A DNA stretch of 64,000 bases from an uncultured bacterium (GTDB lineage Bacteria; Patescibacteriota; Minisyncoccia; Phycocordibacterales; CAIZLB01): NCBI GenBank assembly GCA_903848795.1, contig CAINHC010000001.1, forward strand, positions 14,915-78,914, written 5' to 3'. This document shows, one piece after another, positions 1 to 56,600 of the stretch. Positions within the stretch are counted from its first letter, which is position 1, and the number at the start of each line of letters is the position of its first letter. Both the position numbers and the translations under genes were made by a program. The notes below the pieces were generated by a model, which was not told the origin of the DNA, made no database searches, and worked only from the letters and a program-made list of their open reading frames with translations.

Positions 1-134
1 CCTATTTGAGCTTTTTAATTAAAGACTTTTTCAGTTTTTGCATGTCCTTTTTTCTGTCTTTTAGATGACTTTTTGAAGTCTAAAAGACATGCGCCAGTGC
101 CTAAGAAGATTACAGTAATCAAAACTATACCAAA

Positions 135-4433: not shown

Positions 4434-5693
4434 ATGGCAAATAAAAAAGTAGAAATTAGTAAGAAAGTTACAGAAAAAAAAGCGGATGAAAAAGTCGCAA
4501 AAAAAGCTGTGATTAAAGAGCTTGGTAATAAGCCAGCCAGAAAGGAAATGGATGAATTAGAAGATGTAAAAAAAGCTCTCGCTGAAGCACCCGAGGAATC
4601 AATGCCTGAGACTGCAGAAGACGAGGATGATGGAGAAGACGATGAGTCCCCTTCCTCCAAGCCATCTTCAAAATCTTCTTTTGGTTCCAAGAAAAAGGGC
4701 TCGAAAGAAAAGAGTAATGATTCATCGATCAAAGACACTATCGCACAAATCAAAACAAAATTCGGTGACGATGCAATTATGCGTCTTGGAGAAAAACCAA
4801 GAGTTGACGTTAATGCAATTCCAACTGGATCAATCGGACTTGATGCTGCTCTTGGCGTCGGAGGTCTTCCTCGTGGACGTATTATAGAAATATTTGGACC
4901 AGAATCTTCTGGTAAGACAACGCTTTCTCTTCACGTCATTGCGGAAGCGCAGAAGAAAGATGGAATCTGTGCATTTATCGACGCAGAGCACGCAATGGAT
5001 CCAGAATATGCAAAGCGACTTGGTGTTAAGATTGATGAACTTTTAATTTCACAACCAGACACTGGTGAGCAAGCATTGGAGATTGTTGAGAGTTTAGTTA
5101 GATCAGGAAAGCTAGATGTTATTGTCATCGACTCAGTCGCAGCCTTAACTCCAAAGGATGAAATTGAGGGAGATATGGGTGCATCGCACATGGGTAAGCA
5201 AGCAAGATTAATGTCTCAAGCCTTGCGCAAGCTGACTGCAATCGTTGCACGAAGTAAGACTATCGTAATCTTTATCAACCAAATCAGAATGCAAATTGGT
5301 GTTATGTTTGGTAATCCAGAAACAACTCCAGGAGGAAAGGCTCTTAAGTTCTATACTTCAGTTAGATTAGACATCAGAAGAATTGCTCAAATCAAAAAGG
5401 GTGAAGAAATAATGGGAGGACGTGTTCGAGTTAAGGTTGTAAAGAATAAGGTCGCTGCCCCATTTAGACAAACTGAGTTTGATTTAATGTACAACGAAGG
5501 TATTTCAAAGGAGGGAGAGATTATCGCACTAGGCGAGAAGTTGGACATCATCAACAAAAGCGGAACAAGTTATTCTTATGGAGAAGAAAAGCTGGGCCGT
5601 GGATATGATGCAACTCGTCAATTCCTACGAGCTAATACAAAGATTAGTAACGAGATATTAAAGAAGATTAGAGAGCATTTGAAGGAGCTTTAG
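4434..5693 (+). CDS. recA: recombinase RecA with ~95-aa Lys/Glu/Ser-rich N-terminal extension
   Basis: Core motifs [40 protein letters not shown] (Walker A) and VIDSVAAL. RecA-like sequence only begins around [18 protein letters not shown]. No in-frame ATG/GTG/TTG close to the canonical start, so the extension appears translated. Confidence 0.9.
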
Positions 5694-14107: not shown

Positions 14108-15463
14108 CTAAAGCGCCATTTTCACCACATCCACAATCTGCTCAATAGACAATCTATCTTGTGTAGCCGAATCTCTATATCTCAAAGTCATGGTTTGATC
14201 CTTTTCTACTGTGTCAAAATCCACGGTTATACAATATGGTGTACCGATTTCATCTTGTCTTCTATATCTTTTACCAATGTTTCCATTATCATCAAACATT
14301 ATTCTTCCAGGGAATTCCTTCTTCAGCATTGAATACACTTCCCTAGCCTTCTCGACTAGTTGTGGCTTATTTTTTAGCAATGGAGAAACCGCAATCAAAA
14401 CTGGTGCAATCCTTGGTGACAACTTTAGATAAACTCTTTTCTCTCCGCCAACTTCATCTTCAGAATAAGCATCGGTAAGCACCGCTAACACTGTTCTGTC
14501 CACTCCAAGTGATGGCTCAATACAATGTGGAATAAATCGCTCTTTTGTTTCCTCATCAAAGAAAGACAGATCGGTTCCCGATGCATCAGAGTGACTCTTT
14601 AAATCGAAGTCTGTTCTATAAGCAAGACCGTAAAGCTCTTTTTGACCCATTGGAAAATCAAACTCAAAGTCTATTGTGCGCTTTGAATAGTGAGCTAGGT
14701 CCTCGGGTGCAATTTCTACATCGTGAATTTTAGCAGGAGTTAGACCAACATCATCAGCGAAAGCGTGCACCTGTTGTCTAAAATGCTCAAAAGACTCTTC
14801 CCAACTATTTGGATTAACAAAATACTCTATTTCCATTTGCTCAAACTCACGAGTTCTGAATATAAAATCACGAGGAGCAATCTCATTTCTAAATGCCTTT
14901 CCGATTTGTGCCATACCAAATGGTAGCTTCGGATGGAATGAGTCTAGGGTATTCTTGAAGTTTACAAACATTCCTTGTGCAGTTTCTGGGCGAAGATATG
15001 AGACAGAATCTTCATCTTGATTTGCACCAACATGCGTTGTGAACATCATCTTGAATTGTCTAACATCGCCAAGCGCATTACCTTCTGGACTCTTAATTCC
15101 CTTTTCTTTGATAGCAGAGTCCATTTCCTTAAGTGACATTCCTTTGATATCAACACCGGCCTCTTGTAGTAAGTGATCAGCTCTGTATCTTTTGTTAGTT
15201 TTTATATCATCAACAAGTGGGTCAAAGAATCCCGCAACGTGACCACTCGCCTTCCAAACATTTTGATTCATTAGAATTGCAGCATCGACTCCATACATAT
15301 CGTCTCTATCTAGCACAAAACGCTTCCACCAAGTGTTCTTGATGTTGTTCTTTAGTGCAAGTCCTAGATGCCCATAGTCCCAAGTTCCAGCGAGACCTCC
15401 ATAAATTTCCGAACCTTGGTATATAAAACCTCGTCTTTTAGCTAATGCAATTATTTCTTCCAT
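14108..15463 (-). CDS. glyQS: glycyl-tRNA synthetase (class II, alpha2 type)
   Basis: N-terminal MEEIIALAKRRGFIYQGSEIYGGLAGTWDYGHLG…, class II core and C-terminal anticodon-binding domain. 451 aa. Confidence 0.9.
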   Translation of the reverse strand: MEEIIALAKRRGFIYQGSEIYGGLAGTWDYGHLGLALKNNIKNTWWKRFVLDRDDMYGVDAAILMNQNVWKASGHVAGFFDPLVDDIKTNKRYRADHLLQEAGVDIKGMSLKEMDSAIKEKGIKSPEGNALGDVRQFKMMFTTHVGANQDEDSVSYLRPETAQGMFVNFKNTLDSFHPKLPFGMAQIGKAFRNEIAPRDFIFRTREFEQMEIEYFVNPNSWEESFEHFRQQVHAFADDVGLTPAKIHDVEIAPEDLAHYSKRTIDFEFDFPMGQKELYGLAYRTDFDLKSHSDASGTDLSFFDEETKERFIPHCIEPSLGVDRTVLAVLTDAYSEDEVGGEKRVYLKLSPRIAPVLIAVSPLLKNKPQLVEKAREVYSMLKKEFPGRIMFDDNGNIGKRYRRQDEIGTPYCITVDFDTVEKDQTMTLRYRDSATQDRLSIEQIVDVVKMAL

Positions 15464-18059: not shown

Positions 18060-18130
18060 CTAGATACTGCATATCAAAATACCGCACAAGTGTTCGGCTT
18101 CAAAAGCGAATGCTCAAACACCTGGAAAAT

Positions 18131-37648: not shown

Positions 37649-37682
37649 TGTACTATTGTACTACATTTTAGATTTAAAATAT

Positions 37683-37946
37683 CTAGTACTTTCCACACTT
37701 TTTATCATTCTTAATTAATTCTAGTTTTTGCTCTTTTTTCCACCTTTTAATTTCCGCCTCCCTACCTCGAGCTTCATTTAGGGTCTGGAAGGTTTCCGAA
37801 TATTTCAAAAATACTGGGCGTCTAATTTTTGTGTAATGCGCGCCGGATTTTAGGTTATTATGTTGATTGAGTCTTTTTTCAAGGTCATTAGTGCAACCGA
37901 CATACAGGGTCTTATCAGCACATTCGAGGATGTAGACGGTGAACAT
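37683..37946 (-). CDS. GIY-YIG nuclease family protein (UPF0213-like)
   Basis: FTVYILECADKTLYVGCTNDLEKRLNQHN GIY-YIG motif. 87 aa. Confidence 0.75.
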   Translation of the reverse strand: MFTVYILECADKTLYVGCTNDLEKRLNQHNNLKSGAHYTKIRRPVFLKYSETFQTLNEARGREAEIKRWKKEQKLELIKNDKKCGKY

Positions 37947-37948
37947 TG

Positions 37949-38023
37949 TGGGGTGCCTAGAGAGAATCGGACTCTCGATACCGGTTCCACAAACCGGAGT
38001 TTTACCACTAAACTATAGGCACC
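37949..38023 (-). tRNA. tRNA-His (GTG) with genome-encoded G-1 and CCA
   Basis: Folded by eye. G-1 pairs discriminator C73, acceptor GTGCCTA/TAGGCAC, anticodon arm CCGGT-TTGTGGA-ACCGG, T-arm GAGAG-TCCGATT-CTCTC. 3' CCA encoded (tgg on + strand). Confidence 0.8.
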
Positions 38024-45504: not shown

Positions 45505-46386
45505 CTATAATATCGCGTCTGTCGCTTTTTTGAAATCAGCTGGAAGTTCTACCTCGAATTCGCTCATTTCTCCGCTCACCCCACCTTCGTCACCCACTAA
45601 TGCGTTGGATGGTAAAATTAGCTTTAATTTGCGAGCATGAAGCGCTAGGCGATCAAAACCCAAAGCCTTAGGGTGATTCTCGGCATACAAACTATCGCCC
45701 ACCACAGGGTGATTTATGGCCTTAAAATGAACTCTAATCTGATGCGTTCTTCCAGTTAGTGGATGAACCTCAACAAAAGTAAACATCAAGGGTATTTTGG
45801 AATTACCTTTGCCAACCATTATTGCACCTCTCTTCATCACAGGATCTCCATCAAATCTTTTTAGCACTTTATATTCTGTCACCGCGGGACGAAGCTCACC
45901 TCGAGAAAAACGTTGGGCACTCCACTTTCTAAAGTCCCCCTTACTTCTTCCGATGTGTCTGTCTATTACACCCTCATCCTCTTTAACAAAACCCCACACA
46001 AAAGTATTGTATGTTTTTTTGATTATATGATCCTGAAATTGTTTTTTAAGTATTTCAAAAGCCTCTTGATTTCTAGCCACAACCATAACGCCCGAGGTTT
46101 CTTTATCTAGCCTATGAACAACACCTGGTCTTCTTAAAATTGTAGGTTCTTTGTTTGGACCCCTGCCGATTGTCATAGGCTCACCCACATCCTTAGTCTC
46201 TGGAAATTCTTCTTCAATAAAATCACATAAGGTTTTTTCCTTTGTTTTACCATCGCCGTGAACCATAATGCCGGCGGGTTTATTTATGATCAAAACGTCC
46301 TTATCTTGGTATATTATTGATAACATTACCGTTATCATACTCGATATTGATATTATTTCAATAATAGTATATATTATGGGAACCAA
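45505..46386 (-). CDS. RluA-family pseudouridine synthase
   Basis: …LIINKPAGIMVHG… and catalytic HRLDKETSGVMVVAR. True start may be an internal Met since no S4 domain is present. Confidence 0.8.
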   Translation of the reverse strand: MVPIIYTIIEIISISSMITVMLSIIYQDKDVLIINKPAGIMVHGDGKTKEKTLCDFIEEEFPETKDVGEPMTIGRGPNKEPTILRRPGVVHRLDKETSGVMVVARNQEAFEILKKQFQDHIIKKTYNTFVWGFVKEDEGVIDRHIGRSKGDFRKWSAQRFSRGELRPAVTEYKVLKRFDGDPVMKRGAIMVGKGNSKIPLMFTFVEVHPLTGRTHQIRVHFKAINHPVVGDSLYAENHPKALGFDRLALHARKLKLILPSNALVGDEGGVSGEMSEFEVELPADFKKATDAIL

Positions 46387-46390
46387 ATGA

Positions 46391-46463
46391 GGGCGATTAG
46401 CTCAGTTGGTAGAGCAACTCATTTACACTGAGAAGGTCAGGGGTTCGAGTCCCTTATCGCCCA
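46391..46463 (+). tRNA. tRNA-Val (TAC)
   Basis: Acceptor GGGCGAT/ATCGCCC, D-arm GCTC-AGTTGGTA-GAGC, anticodon loop TTTACAC, T-loop TTCGAGT. Confidence 0.85.
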
Positions 46464-46473
46464 CAAAACAAAA

Positions 46474-46501
46474 ATAACAGGAATTTATTCCTGTTATTTT
46501 T
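46474..46501 (+). terminator. terminator after tRNA-Val
   Basis: AACAGGAATttaTTCCTGTT + TTTTTCG. Confidence 0.55.
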
Positions 46502-46652
46502 CGTTTGTGTTGGGGCGATAGGAGGTGCCTTGAGTCACCTCCGCAAGGGACGAGAAAAGCTTTGCTATATTTTCGAGAATCTGAAAGATTCGAGAAAATT
46601 GCAAAGGTGTACTGGGGCTGCGATTCAGCAGAATCGCCTACTGGGTAAGCCC

Positions 46653-46672
46653 CGAGTCCCTTATCGCCCACA
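46653..46672. repeat. direct repeat of the tRNA-Val 3' end (CGAGTCCCTTATCGCCCACA), 20/20 identical to 46446-46465
   Basis: Exact 20-bp copy of T-loop-to-3'-end sequence located 187 bp downstream of the tRNA, an att-like arrangement. Confidence 0.75.
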
Positions 46673-46680
46673 ATTCACTC

Positions 46681-46794
46681 AAAACTCCGCTTCTATTGAA
46701 TGCACACCAATTTTCTGCTGAAAATTCGATTTCCGTCGACAGGAAATCGCCCGCTCGTTGCAACTCGCAAGGCATTCAATAGAAGCGGAGTTTT
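46681..46794. repeat. second perfect 23-bp-stem hairpin with homologous loop (TTC-TGCT-GAA mini-hairpin plus GATTTCC-GTCGACA-GGAAATC palindrome)
   Basis: AAAACTCCGCTTCTATTGAATGC (46681-46703) is the exact reverse complement of 46772-46794. The loop contains CCAATTTTCTGCTGAAAATTCG and ends …CTCGCAAG like the 44224 element. Confidence 0.7.
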
Positions 46795-46950
46795 TCGTTC
46801 ATGGGTATTTTGTAAAAAAATTCGATGATTGGAATTATTTTATCACCCTGCTTTCGCTTTTGAAGCCGAACACTTATCTTATTTTATAAGTAAAAAACTT
46901 CCAAAAAAATCCTCCGCCACAAAAGATAATATCCTTATCCAATGAACGAA

Positions 46951-47073
46951 TTTGTGCTCTCGGTAGGAATCTTCCCCTACGGGGACGGTACAGGTTTCGT
47001 ATTGTGCTCGCTATGCTTCGCACAATATACTCAACCTTTTCGATTCCTACACGCAAGCCGATCAATCGGCTTG
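46951..47073. repeat. tRNA-Arg(TCT)-linked structured insert plus 22-bp copy of the tRNA 3' end (46951-46972), ~90% identical (inverted) to 52553-52685
   Basis: ATTTGTGCTCTCGGTAGGAATC at 46951-46972 equals 47103-47124 (reverse complement of the tRNA 3' end). Intervening sequence forms nested stems (GTAGGAATC/GATTCCTAC, AGGTT/AACCT, TATTGTGC/GCACAATA, CCCC-GTA-GGGG). Confidence 0.7.
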
Positions 47074-47107
47074 CTCTCGAGCCCAAAATTAAAACGCCTT
47101 TCGGCGT

Positions 47108-47179
47108 TTTAATATTTGTGCTCTCGGTAGGAATCGAACCTACATTAACGGCTTAGAAGTCCGCAGTTCTATCCATTGA
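47108..47179 (-). tRNA. tRNA-Arg (TCT), with A31-G39 mismatch in anticodon stem
   Basis: Acceptor GCTCTTG/CGAGAGC, D-arm GTTC-AATGGATA-GAAC, anticodon loop CTTCTAA, T-arm GTAGG-TTCGATT-CCTAC. Terminator hairpin AAAACGCCgaaaGGCGTTTT follows on the minus strand. Confidence 0.65.
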
Positions 47180-47213
47180 ACTACAAGAGCATGCATGTAC
47201 AATAGCATATTTT

Positions 47214-47621
47214 TTAAATTTTACCAGCCCCAGACACCACCCCCGCTCCAGCAGGGCTGGTCGCTGTATTGTTGGTGGTTGATGCATTCGTTGTAGTTGC
47301 CACCACGCCAACCTTAGCACCTGCCGTGGTCGCAGTAGCGACCGTCATCCCCGCCCAAGATGCCTCCTTGCCTTGATACTTCTCAATCACGCTTTTAATC
47401 TCCGCTTCCTTGTCCTTAACTGGAACAAAATCTGTCGCCTCGCCAGAATCAGACATTAAAGATGTCTGAACAGAAAAATAGAAAAAATAACTCCAAATAA
47501 AAACTCCAAGAATAATAGAAAAAGCTACAACCATAATTCTTTGCCAATCTTGGACTGGTCGACTGCCGAATATATACATATTCCTTAATTTATTTCCAAA
47601 TTGTCCTAGTTCTATATTCAT
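47214..47621 (-). CDS. hypothetical membrane protein (downstream of pilM-pilN-pilO, possibly pilus-assembly associated)
   Basis: 135 aa with one TM (IMVVAFSIILGVFIWSYFFYF) and a Thr/Ala-rich C-terminus. Position analogous to pilP, but no homology recognised. Confidence 0.35.
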   Translation of the reverse strand: MNIELGQFGNKLRNMYIFGSRPVQDWQRIMVVAFSIILGVFIWSYFFYFSVQTSLMSDSGEATDFVPVKDKEAEIKSVIEKYQGKEASWAGMTVATATTAGAKVGVVATTTNASTTNNTATSPAGAGVVSGAGKI

Positions 47622-49927: not shown

Positions 49928-50809
49928 CTATTTCAACTTTGTACCATTTGGCAAACTCTTGCTTGGATTAAGTAGGGCAATATTTTTACCGTCACCTCCA
50001 GCCAATATCATAGCTTGGCTTTCTTGTCCCATCATCATTCTAGGGGCCAAGTTTGTAACAAAGGGAAACTGCTTTCCAACCAGATCTACAGCATCAACAT
50101 GTCTTGCTATTCCAGAAAGAACCTGTCGTGGCCTTTCTTCACCAAAATCAACTGAAAGTTTTAGTAATTTATCAGAACCTTCTATGTTTTCAACTACTAA
50201 AATTTGGCCCATTTTTATCTCTACCTTTAGAAAATCGTCAATCGATATATAATCTGATGTTTTACTGACCCCAGCCTCCGCCTTTGGATTTTCCAATGTT
50301 TCCGTTTGGGTATTATTATCAATATTGTTATCCTTTATTTCTGTATCTTGTGATTGTGTATTCATATTTTTAAATTTTATTCTATCCAAATAACTTTGTA
50401 AAATGATCGCCGCTGCCGATGCGTCTACATTCTTGTTTTCACCCTGGAACTTAGTAGCCTGAACCGTGGAGTATAATTCTGGTTCATAAACAACATTAAA
50501 CCCAGCCTCTTCCAGTTTTGACCCAAAAAATCTAGCATCTACCATGATTGTATTATCAACCCCCTTGAGATCTACTGAGTGTCCAATTATAGCGGTTTGA
50601 GCCTGCCGGTCTTTTAGAATATCAACTACCTCCTGTACAGCCTGCTTTATTCTTTCCTCTCTCTTGTCTATGTCGTGACCAAAACCAGCGACAACAGTCA
50701 ATGGGAAGGCCAACAGTCCAAGCACGTCTCCGACCGCTACGCCAATCCTCTTTGATCCAAAATCTAGGCCAATTATTCTTTTATTTATTTCGGAAACGTC
50801 TTTATTCAT
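49928..50809 (-). CDS. ruvX: RuvX/YqgF pre-16S rRNA nuclease fused to a C-terminal Trbp111/CsaA-type tRNA-binding domain
   Basis: N-terminal IGLDFGSKRIGVAVGD…DASAAAIILQSYLD (YqgF). C-terminal IDDFLKVEIKMGQILVVENIEGSDKLLKLSVDFGEE-RQVLSGIARHV…LVGKQFPFVTNLAPRMMMGQESQAMILAG (PF01588 tRNA_bind pattern). Confidence 0.8.
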   Translation of the reverse strand: MNKDVSEINKRIIGLDFGSKRIGVAVGDVLGLLAFPLTVVAGFGHDIDKREERIKQAVQEVVDILKDRQAQTAIIGHSVDLKGVDNTIMVDARFFGSKLEEAGFNVVYEPELYSTVQATKFQGENKNVDASAAAIILQSYLDRIKFKNMNTQSQDTEIKDNNIDNNTQTETLENPKAEAGVSKTSDYISIDDFLKVEIKMGQILVVENIEGSDKLLKLSVDFGEERPRQVLSGIARHVDAVDLVGKQFPFVTNLAPRMMMGQESQAMILAGGDGKNIALLNPSKSLPNGTKLK

Positions 50810-52440: not shown

Positions 52441-52512
52441 GCTCTCGTCGTTCAATGGATAGGACATGACTTTGCGGAAGTTAAAATGTAGGTTCGATTC
52501 CTACCGGGAGCA
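52441..52512 (+). tRNA. tRNA-Arg (GCG anticodon)
   Basis: Acceptor GCTCTCG/CGGGAGC, D-arm GTTC-AATGGATA-GGAC, anticodon arm TGACT-TTGCGGA-AGTTA, T-arm identical to the other tRNA-Arg. Terminator AAAAAACACCctaaGGTGTTTTTT follows. Confidence 0.65.
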
Positions 52513-52552
52513 CATGAAAATAAAAAACACCCTAAGGTGTTTTTTATTTTTC

Positions 52553-52685
52553 GGGCGAGCGAAGAAGCTAATTTATTAGCTTCTGTGTAGAAATCGAAAA
52601 GGTTGAGTATATTGTGCGATGCGTAGCGAGCACAATACGAAACCTATACCGTCCCTGTAAGGGAAGATTCCTACCGGGGGCACAA
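52553..52685. repeat. tRNA-Arg(GCG)-linked structured insert plus 19-bp copy (52667-52685, 1 mismatch) of the tRNA 3' end, homologous to 46951-47073
   Basis: GTGTAGAAATCGAAAAGGTTGAGTATATTGTGCGATGCGTAGCGAGCACAATACGAAACCTATACCGTCCCTGTAAGGGAAGATTCCTACCGGGGGCACA is the near-exact reverse complement of 46973-47053 plus the flank. Confidence 0.7.
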
Positions 52686-56567: not shown

Positions 56568-56600
56568 CAAATTTTCCCCTAAAACCACACCGCTACTTTT

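Follow-up and report, generated by a model that had tools for sequence, protein, structure and literature searches.

An apparently undescribed family of structured elements immediately downstream of tRNA and tmRNA genes in Patescibacteria

Why should a transfer RNA (tRNA) gene be followed, a short way downstream, by a second copy of its own 3' end? The question is raised twice by one locus of contig CAINHC010000001.1 (assembly GCA_903848795.1, uncultured Patescibacteria), of which we analysed positions 14,915 to 78,914, a stretch of 64,000 nucleotides (nt) that is called the window below. Here tRNA-Val(TAC) and tRNA-Arg(TCT) are each followed by a terminator-like hairpin, a structured insert and a direct repeat of the tRNA 3' end. 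An earlier note, made from the letters of the window, had read these arrangements as attL/attR remnants of very small tRNA-targeting integrative elements or decayed islands or, alternatively, as an unrecognised tRNA-linked non-coding RNA. The analysis described here indicates that the inserts apparently belong to a previously undescribed family of multi-copy structured elements of about 130-160 nt, located immediately 3' of tRNA and transfer-messenger RNA (tmRNA) genes in Patescibacteria. The reading that we favour, to which we give an even chance, is that of an RNA element of the tRNA trailer and not of a remnant of an integrase-mediated island.

The repeats themselves are real. The Val 3'-end repeat (CGAGTCCCTTATCGCCCACAA) is exact over 21 nt between 46446-46466 and 46653-46673, one letter more than the 20 first counted, and its upstream copy comprises tRNA-Val from nt 56 to C74 plus two trailer bases. 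The Arg(TCT) repeat (ATTTGTGCTCTCGGTAGGAATC) is exact over 22 nt, the length given before, and its copies lie at 47114-47135 and 46950-46971, about 11 nt and 1 nt away from where the earlier note had placed them (47103-47124 and 46951-46972). The copies of both repeats run from T-loop nt 56/57 through the discriminator and 3-5 trailer bases, and chance could hardly produce two exact repeats of this length (21-22 nt) within about 1 kb. The terminator hairpins reported behind both tRNAs were also recovered by a terminator scan and as inverted repeats, at 46470-46501 (Val) and 47088-47113 (Arg(TCT)). The inserts between the repeats measure 164-207 base pairs (bp) and hold no plausible gene, only short open reading frames (ORFs) that overlap the folded element. 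Since the 835-bp intergenic sequence was 100% identical across eight independent assemblies, the locus is no assembly artefact; an empty site was sought in the same-species assemblies and none was found, all of them being 100% identical.

When we scanned all seven tRNA genes of the window with k-mers, a third unit was found behind tRNA-Arg(GCG), and three of the seven genes carry such a tail element. Alignment with two orthologous Val inserts from relatives revealed that the Val, Arg(TCT) and Arg(GCG) inserts are homologous to one another; neither this homology nor the third unit had been remarked on before. All share one order of parts. The 5' half opens with a strand complementary to the acceptor 3' strand; after hairpin 1 comes a second such strand, whose complements are the 3' strand of the T-stem and the T-loop's 3' half. 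The 3' half begins with GAAAA, which leads into the long hairpin A; (U)GUAC then separates hairpin A from hairpin B, whose loop is GUA, and the unit closes with tRNA sequence that runs from the T-loop to a little beyond the discriminator. The features in the window are as follows.

46391-46464, + strand: tRNA-Val(TAC) (ARAGORN; Rfam, 70.2 bits)
46462-46509, + strand: terminator-like palindrome between tRNA-Val and the Val element (inverted repeat, terminator scan, palindrome analysis)
46512-46671, + strand: Val element, 160 nt (covariance model, 136.6 and 113.3 bits; fold; alignments)
46513-46519, + strand: Val element, acceptor-complement arm
46521-46542, + strand: Val element, hairpin 1
46545-46551, + strand: Val element, T-complement arm, followed by a GAGAAAA linker
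46558-46608, + strand: Val element, hairpin A
46609-46612, + strand: Val element, GUAC
46613-46654, + strand: Val element, hairpin B with an extra inserted hairpin
46656-46669, + strand: Val element, copy of the tRNA T-stem and acceptor 3' strand, with A73 at 46670 (exact repeat 46653-46673)
46954-47083, - strand: Arg(TCT) element, 130 nt (covariance model, 120.4 and 112 bits; fold; repeats)
47076-47082, - strand: Arg(TCT) element, partial acceptor-complement arm
47053-47074, - strand: Arg(TCT) element, hairpin 1
47042-47050, - strand: Arg(TCT) element, T-complement arm GUAGGAAUC
46992-47037, - strand: Arg(TCT) element, hairpin A
46988-46991, - strand: Arg(TCT) element, GUAC
46971-46987, - strand: Arg(TCT) element, hairpin B
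46954-46970, - strand: Arg(TCT) element, tRNA 3' copy (exact repeat 46950-46971)
47085-47116, - strand: terminator-like hairpin between tRNA-Arg(TCT) and its element (inverted repeat, terminator scan)
47118-47190, - strand: tRNA-Arg(TCT) (ARAGORN; Rfam, 65.9 bits)
52441-52513, + strand: tRNA-Arg(GCG) (ARAGORN), with a terminator-like hairpin at about 52517-52550, a palindrome of 17 pairs
52554-52683, + strand: Arg(GCG) element, the third unit (k-mer scan, alignment, fold; covariance model, 110.9 and 99.3 bits)
52563-52584, + strand: Arg(GCG) element, hairpin 1
52587-52595, + strand: Arg(GCG) element, T-complement arm
52600-52645, + strand: Arg(GCG) element, hairpin A
52650-52666, + strand: Arg(GCG) element, hairpin B
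52667-52683, + strand: Arg(GCG) element, tRNA 3' copy; the acceptor-complement arm is degenerate

We then searched for further members with a pattern confined to the core, GAAAANNTTNNNTATATTN{14,40}AATNNNAAANNTNTAC. It gave three matches in the window against none in 100 shuffles of it, and matched at least 118 loci in one-genome-per-species contigs. We tested the matches listed for this pattern with a covariance model made from five sequences, and 108 copies from 83 sources passed at E < 1e-3; the family counts below rest on these listed matches, a pattern-biased sample examined in 8-kb pieces of other genomes, with host labels as in the records. A second covariance model (from the 108 copies, unfiltered) found exactly three copies in the window, and elsewhere several copies occur per metagenome-assembled genome (MAG), with ends that pair. 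The hosts of the 108 copies bear either a Patescibacteria label or no label, and none is a MAG labelled otherwise; the record labels are mainly Paceibacteria/Parcubacteria, with Nomura-, Adler-, Yonath-, Zambryskii- and Woesebacteria and many MAGs labelled Saccharibacteria. Pattern matches in Pelagibacter, Fredinandcohnia, Bacteroides and other non-Patescibacteria were not confirmed by the covariance model and were set aside as chance. Viral contigs gave 11 core-pattern matches, of which none was confirmed by the model, plasmid and GenBank phage collections lying outside the search. In one pair of loci, L021 4498-4626 and L054 4068-4177, the cores are 100% identical in MAGs of the same study that are labelled Woesebacteria and Paceibacterota, respectively, which could reflect mis-binning or a recent transfer.

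The fold of the element is well marked. Folding energies are -72.6 kcal/mol for the Val element (z -6.1) and -58.0 kcal/mol for the Arg(TCT) element (z -7.0), and none of 200 shuffles was as stable in either case, in line with the earlier description of the inserts as highly structured; the further description of a T-arm whose loop is expanded by nested stems also agrees with the fold. The conserved core consists of hairpin 1 and a three-way junction, and is flanked by arms specific to the neighbouring gene. The 3' arm repeats this gene from T-loop nt 54-57 to C74, with 1-5 nt more. The 5' arms are the Watson-Crick complement of the 3' arm, the T part being present nearly always and the acceptor part usually. 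In the consensus structure the acceptor and T helices are stacked on one continuous 3' strand, with covariation in both (81% and 90-92% paired), and the clamp helix often runs on through A73 and C74, where GUG pairs with CAC; CCA is encoded only if the tRNA gene has it. The Arg(TCT) and Arg(GCG) cores are 93% identical, yet their hairpin 1 sequences are wholly different with the pairing kept. Hairpin A occurs in a version with tandem G.A pairs and in a fully Watson-Crick version, tandem G.A pairs being found in the helices of the element, and hairpin B has its GUA loop, which was not part of the search pattern, in 102 of the 108 copies. The extra hairpin inside hairpin B of the Val element (GCGAUU..AAUCGCCUACUGGGU, 46619-46646) has a similar counterpart in the otherwise distant L069 6231-6393.

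The examination of folding and covariation across homologues that the earlier note had proposed gave strong covariation. In the alignment of the 108 sequences, standard pairs fill 89.2% of cells, compared with 61.7% when columns were shuffled and 32-52% when partners were slid; both sides change in 48 of 51 pairs, and hairpin 1 is 98% paired. Covariation that would indicate kissing between the loop of hairpin 1 and the loops of hairpins A and B was sought and not found. G-U and U-G pairs outnumber A-C and C-A pairs by 236 to 64, with an excess in every helix (70 against 9 in hairpin A, for example), and the folding strand is therefore the tRNA-sense strand. The evidence, a conserved, covarying, folded element on this strand, favours the earlier proposal of an unrecognised tRNA-linked non-coding RNA; its RNA nature, like its processing, partner binding and route of spread, is something that we infer from sequence.

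Next, the relation of the copies to their neighbours was considered. Seventy-five of the 108 lie less than 150 nt downstream of a co-oriented tRNA gene (at least 29 anticodons) or tmRNA gene (two cases), 6 lie behind another unit, 12 at contig edges, and 15 are orphans, several of which follow tRNAs missed by ARAGORN, such as intron-type Asn/Asp genes. Counted from the other side, 75 of the 143 tRNA genes in the fetched loci carry an element, again in a biased sample. An exact block of at least 15 nt is common to tRNA and element in 34 of 73 tRNA-linked copies; its first base is nt 54, 57 or 60, and its last lies 1-5 nt beyond the discriminator. In the remaining copies the tRNA sequence is truncated to T-loop and T-stem or is interrupted by an extra hairpin. 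Since CCA appears in the copy only where the gene encodes it, the sequence was copied from the gene or the primary transcript and not from mature tRNA. The two elements behind tmRNA (ssrA) are at L118 1776-2346 (+) and L077 1551-2072 (-), and their arms match the tmRNA 3' end.

The Val element is found at the same place in two relatives, L001 and L002, whose Alr proteins are 83% and 81% identical to that of the window. Across the species its identity is 88-92%, whereas four-fold degenerate sites in alr, the gene next to it, agree at only 59-70%; in L002, spacer and terminator have been replaced. This conservation indicates purifying selection, or very recent homogenisation. The relatives keep this sequence with no island around it, the very observation that the earlier note had named as speaking against its own first proposal. 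The Arg(TCT) unit, on the other hand, is absent at the orthologous site in L001.

These results bear directly on the idea that the units are attL/attR scars, whether of decayed genomic islands or of very small elements with a tyrosine integrase. The exact direct repeats of tRNA 3' ends that start in the T-loop, the use of tmRNA as a further target and the missing Arg(TCT) unit of L001 all suit such scars. The interiors, however, are homologous across tRNAs and genomes, covary, change far more slowly than neutral sites and appear to be under purifying selection; they contain an arm complementary to the repeat, which scars do not predict, and the inserts are only 164-207 bp long. When we examined 81 ORFs downstream of the elements, no integrase, transposase or reverse transcriptase was found among the 25 most often matched of 64 Pfam families, which represent unrelated housekeeping functions, and no integrase was found among the local ORFs of the window. 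No phage counterpart was confirmed in the viral contigs either. Based on these observations, we regard the scar explanation as largely refuted and very improbable.

The spacer between tRNA and element shows a peculiar organisation. A terminator-like hairpin lies between them in 37 of the 75 loci and after the element in only 17 of the 75. For the 38 loci of 75 without an intervening terminator, co-transcription is expected, and the terminator-less linkers have in common a stop-codon-rich motif resembling GAACAUAGUGA. In at least 17 loci (L112, L113, L108, L048 and L073, for example), the whole spacer forms one near-perfect palindrome of 24-36 bp centred on the terminator loop, which takes in 9-15 nt of the tRNA on one side and 7-13 nt of the element on the other. 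The palindrome across the terminator gives the layout X - terminator - X' (split by hairpin 1) - core - X. In the Val palindrome at 46462-46509, the arms are 23 nt long with 91% complementarity, starting with C72-A73-C74 of the tRNA and ending with the GTG that abuts the element. Such long, in-register, near-perfect palindromes that are centred on a terminator and reach into the tRNA would be expected if the elements had no function and arose as a side effect of template-switch (quasi-palindrome) mutagenesis at the terminator hairpins that follow tRNA genes. That process cannot yield a conserved 80-nt core with covariation and a GUA loop at more than 100 loci, and it leaves the purifying selection unexplained; at most it accounts for the perfection of the arms, and as a full explanation we find it scarcely credible.

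Turnover of the units is considerable. Occupancy of a given tRNA type varies between genomes, and tandem arrays were observed that are homogeneous in L067 and L103 and heterogeneous in L106 and L119, with every unit keeping a perfect tRNA copy. The nearest neighbour of a core is sometimes behind the same tRNA type in another genome and sometimes behind a different tRNA in the same genome. In L012 at about 1-85 (-) and L091 at about 4690-4780 (-), the module of GUAC, hairpin B and GAAUC is tandemly repeated by itself downstream of an element, which points to slippage or to recurrent events where the module joins the tRNA copy. The only cassette-like case that we saw is at L087 3525-4374 (-), where tRNA-Glu and a unit are followed by about 570 nt with an ORF of 96 amino acids (function unassigned) and a second unit, whose hairpin 1 bears a large insertion.

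Much of this would be natural for a non-autonomous DNA element resembling attC, CTX attP or REPIN sequences, in which the folded sense strand would serve as a single-stranded DNA substrate for recombination or transposition. Its insertion at the 3' ends of tRNA and tmRNA genes would be the work of a recombinase or HUH enzyme that is encoded elsewhere and acts in trans, with the clamp recreating a duplex copy of the 3' end of the tRNA gene. The 3' ends of tRNA and tmRNA genes are a classic integration target, and the specificity of the family for them, the trailer bases taken into the direct repeats, the presence or absence of units among close relatives, the homogeneous and heterogeneous arrays with a perfect copy in every unit, the repeats of the hairpin B module alone, the one cargo ORF between two units, the usual position of the terminator before and not after the element, and the near-identical cores behind different tRNAs of one genome all fit this view. 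So do the closing stems, which are conserved in structure, variable in sequence and strand-biased, as in attC sites. Against it, no candidate enzyme was found in cis, whether in the 81 neighbour ORFs (the 25 most often matched of 64 Pfam families) or in the local ORFs of the window, and no copy was confirmed in viral contigs. Moreover, the long-term conservation in place and the apparent purifying selection are not expected of it, arms that differ for each tRNA are unreadable for a sequence-specific enzyme, tandem G.A and abundant G-U pairs are more typical of RNA, and about half of the copies (38 of 75) lie inside the tRNA transcription unit with no terminator between. A DNA element accounts better than an RNA for the position of the terminator, the arrays and the patchiness, and less well for the fact that elements are conserved in place, for the half of loci expected to be co-transcribed and for pair types like those of RNA. 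We consider it the main rival, though a tentative one.

A further possibility arises when the tRNA and the element are folded together. The minimum free energy fold of the full tRNA-plus-element RNA, which is a thermodynamic prediction, is a strand-swapped cloverleaf, in which the 5' strands of the tRNA are base-paired to the downstream copy, and the arms of the element to the original 3' end of the tRNA. This would suit an intron-like insertion into the T-loop, running from nt 57 to hairpin B and bringing a spare tRNA 3' end, so that either copy could complete the tRNA and a read-through RNA would toggle between two folds. The boundary of the copy clusters at nt 54/57, just after GGTTC, and Patescibacteria are rich in tRNA introns (PMC13011429). 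However, an intact tRNA always precedes the element, so splicing is unnecessary; neither the group I and group II models nor those of known ribozymes match; a tRNA that folds while it is transcribed should take its normal form; and the swapped fold is a thermodynamic prediction only. We know of no bacterial enzyme that excises such an insert, and this too counts against an explanation that we judge unlikely.

Taking these results together, we return to the tRNA-trailer RNA element as the favoured reading. The element would act as a folded single strand of tRNA-sense polarity, most likely RNA, made within the 3' trailer of the tRNA, by co-transcription in the about half of loci that have no terminator and by read-through in the others. 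Its arms would stack into an extended mimic of the acceptor/T helix of the cognate tRNA, with the conserved junction in place of the T-loop, and the three-way junction is a likely contact site for a conserved partner. Short-range gene conversion or template switching may keep the arms matched to the local tRNA. Units would spread and be lost by duplication and homologous recombination, with the tRNA gene and its copy as the homology, a route of spread that would require no enzyme encoded by the element.

Here, we need to consider several observations that weigh against this reading. First, the patchy occupancy, the tandem and heterogeneous arrays, the truncated copies and the orphans look like a mobile or selfish element and not like a host gene. 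Second, a terminator-like hairpin before the element in 37 of 75 loci and after it in only 17 is an odd layout for an RNA gene. Third, the G.T wobble bias and the covariation are also expected of a folded single-stranded DNA recombination site, and the pair counts come from an alignment fitted to the model, which inflates pairing somewhat, the margin being large. Fourth, the clamp helix often pairs the discriminator and C74, so that the element would be no faithful mimic of a substrate with a free NCCA end. Finally, the apparent re-matching of the arms to a different tRNA has no explanation in the mechanism proposed above. A rather doubtful but possible alternative form is a protein-less retargetable unit, in which a conserved RNA or single-stranded DNA scaffold, with guide arms complementary to a tRNA or tmRNA 3' end and a spare copy of it, would home to the tails of tRNA genes, possibly with a transcript that exchanges the 3' strand of the tRNA for the spare.

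To place the family among known systems, we compared it with databases and published descriptions. Rfam 15 at gathering and permissive thresholds gave only the true tRNAs and spurious microRNA-type hits, with nothing over the elements at E up to 10, and an Rfam E-value scan of 46300-47300 gave no group I or II intron or ribozyme family. ARAGORN and Rfam call only the seven true tRNAs in the window and do not recognise the elements as cloverleaf. Full-text literature searches found no published description of the element; the closest publication describes tRNA genes of Patescibacteria with group I introns at position 35/36, and reports that the phylum has no group II introns (PMC13011429). By reading of the sequence, hammerhead and hairpin ribozymes, K-turn and loop E, H/ACA and C/D guide RNAs, IS200/605 and IS91 ends, TnpB omega-RNA, IS110 bridge RNA and group IIC introns were ruled out on junction strand lengths, on symmetric tandem G.A without a bulge, or on small size.

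The att sites that prophages, integrative and conjugative elements and cis-mobilisable elements use in tRNA and tmRNA genes resemble the family in a repeat that starts in the T-loop and runs a few bases past the gene, in the use of tmRNA, in patchiness and in arrays. They differ in that the element has no integrase, usually no cargo and an insert of 164-207 bp, that its interior has a covarying, selected fold with a complement of the repeat, and that no phage-borne form was found. With attC, CTX attP and REPIN/RAYT systems the element would share a folded single strand as the functional form, and it shares stems that conserve structure over sequence, strand bias, multiple copies or arrays and long-term intergenic persistence. 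Unlike them, it has no R/L boxes and no nearby integron integrase or RAYT, its stems are copied from the adjacent tRNA, and its sequence-conserved three-way junction core spans deeply divergent Patescibacteria lineages. Integron attC sites, in particular, have RYYYAAC...GTTRRRY boxes and an accompanying intI gene, whereas the arms of the element are derived from tRNA (GGGCGAU/AUCGCCC, for example) and no integrase was found in local or neighbour ORFs. Miniature inverted-repeat transposable elements and REPIN repeats likewise have several copies per genome and complementary ends, but the arms of the element vary by tRNA, and no transposase was among the 25 most often matched of 64 neighbour Pfam families.

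Resemblance to RNA systems is also partial. As in the tRNA mimics (the tRNA-like domain of tmRNA, mascRNA, viral tRNA-like structures and YrlA), acceptor- and T-like helices lie on one continuous 3' strand, and the side hairpin of the element emerges where the D/anticodon domain would. In contrast to them, the element has a three-way junction where the T-loop would be and lacks a D-loop/T-loop elbow; pairing often extends to its discriminator and C74, and each copy mimics the tRNA next to it and goes unseen by ARAGORN and Rfam. RNAs from tRNA 3' external transcribed spacers and tRNA-linked introns belong to tRNA transcription units as well, the latter in the same phylum. Group IIC introns insert after terminators, and the element likewise stands directly after a terminator T-run; compared with tRNA-linked introns, it leaves the tRNA uninterrupted, is far too small, has no group I or II core and has arms derived from tRNA.

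Some further features of the window deserve mention. The Val/Arg(TCT) locus is flanked by rluA, alr and a pilO-like gene, and the gene content of the window also includes rplS, pilMNO and ruvX; this content and the source names of the Alr homologues mark the organism as a Patescibacteria MAG of Paceibacteria type. Close behind the Val element is one additional structure:

46681-46794, + strand: three-hairpin structure with a perfect 23-bp closing stem, then a T-run (inverted repeat; fold z -8.1)

We rejected this structure as a family member; it is absent from L001, and no further copy of it was found in the window or in the 140 fetched loci. It could serve as terminator for the Val element or be a small insertion in its own right. 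A 12-nt inverted repeat (46794-46805 and 46939-46950) brackets the 133-nt spacer between it and the Arg(TCT) element, and 26 nt of the spacer (46850-46875) match 18088-18113 of the window at 96%. Four tRNA genes of the seven in the window, namely Val, Lys and both Arg, encode no CCA; behind the discriminator and C74 they continue with A, and the sequence is A-rich in three of them (for example 46464-46468, 47114-47118 and 56568-56572). An ORF of 87 amino acids of the GIY-YIG nuclease family (about 37680-37948, -) begins a few bases after tRNA-His (37949-38022), which has no tail element. At 49928-50809 (-), a RuvX (YqgF) Holliday-junction-resolvase-like domain is fused to a tRNA-binding domain, according to the Pfam families of the orthologue in relatives.

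Patescibacteria genomes are tiny and streamlined, yet about half of the tRNA genes in the sequence examined, which is a biased sample, carry an element of 130-160 nt. Neither Rfam 15 nor the literature searched contains a counterpart to a conserved, covarying fold whose arms are rewritten for each neighbouring tRNA, and we suggest that the family is new, be it as a class of RNA linked to tRNA or as a type of selfish element that targets tRNA. In practical terms, its partial tRNA repeats can be misread as att sites by island finders that rely on tRNA fragments, and as pseudo-tRNAs by annotators. If the elements do prove to be retargetable protein-less units, they would represent a new mode of tRNA-targeted mobility or of tRNA maintenance that is specific to the reduced genomes of Patescibacteria.

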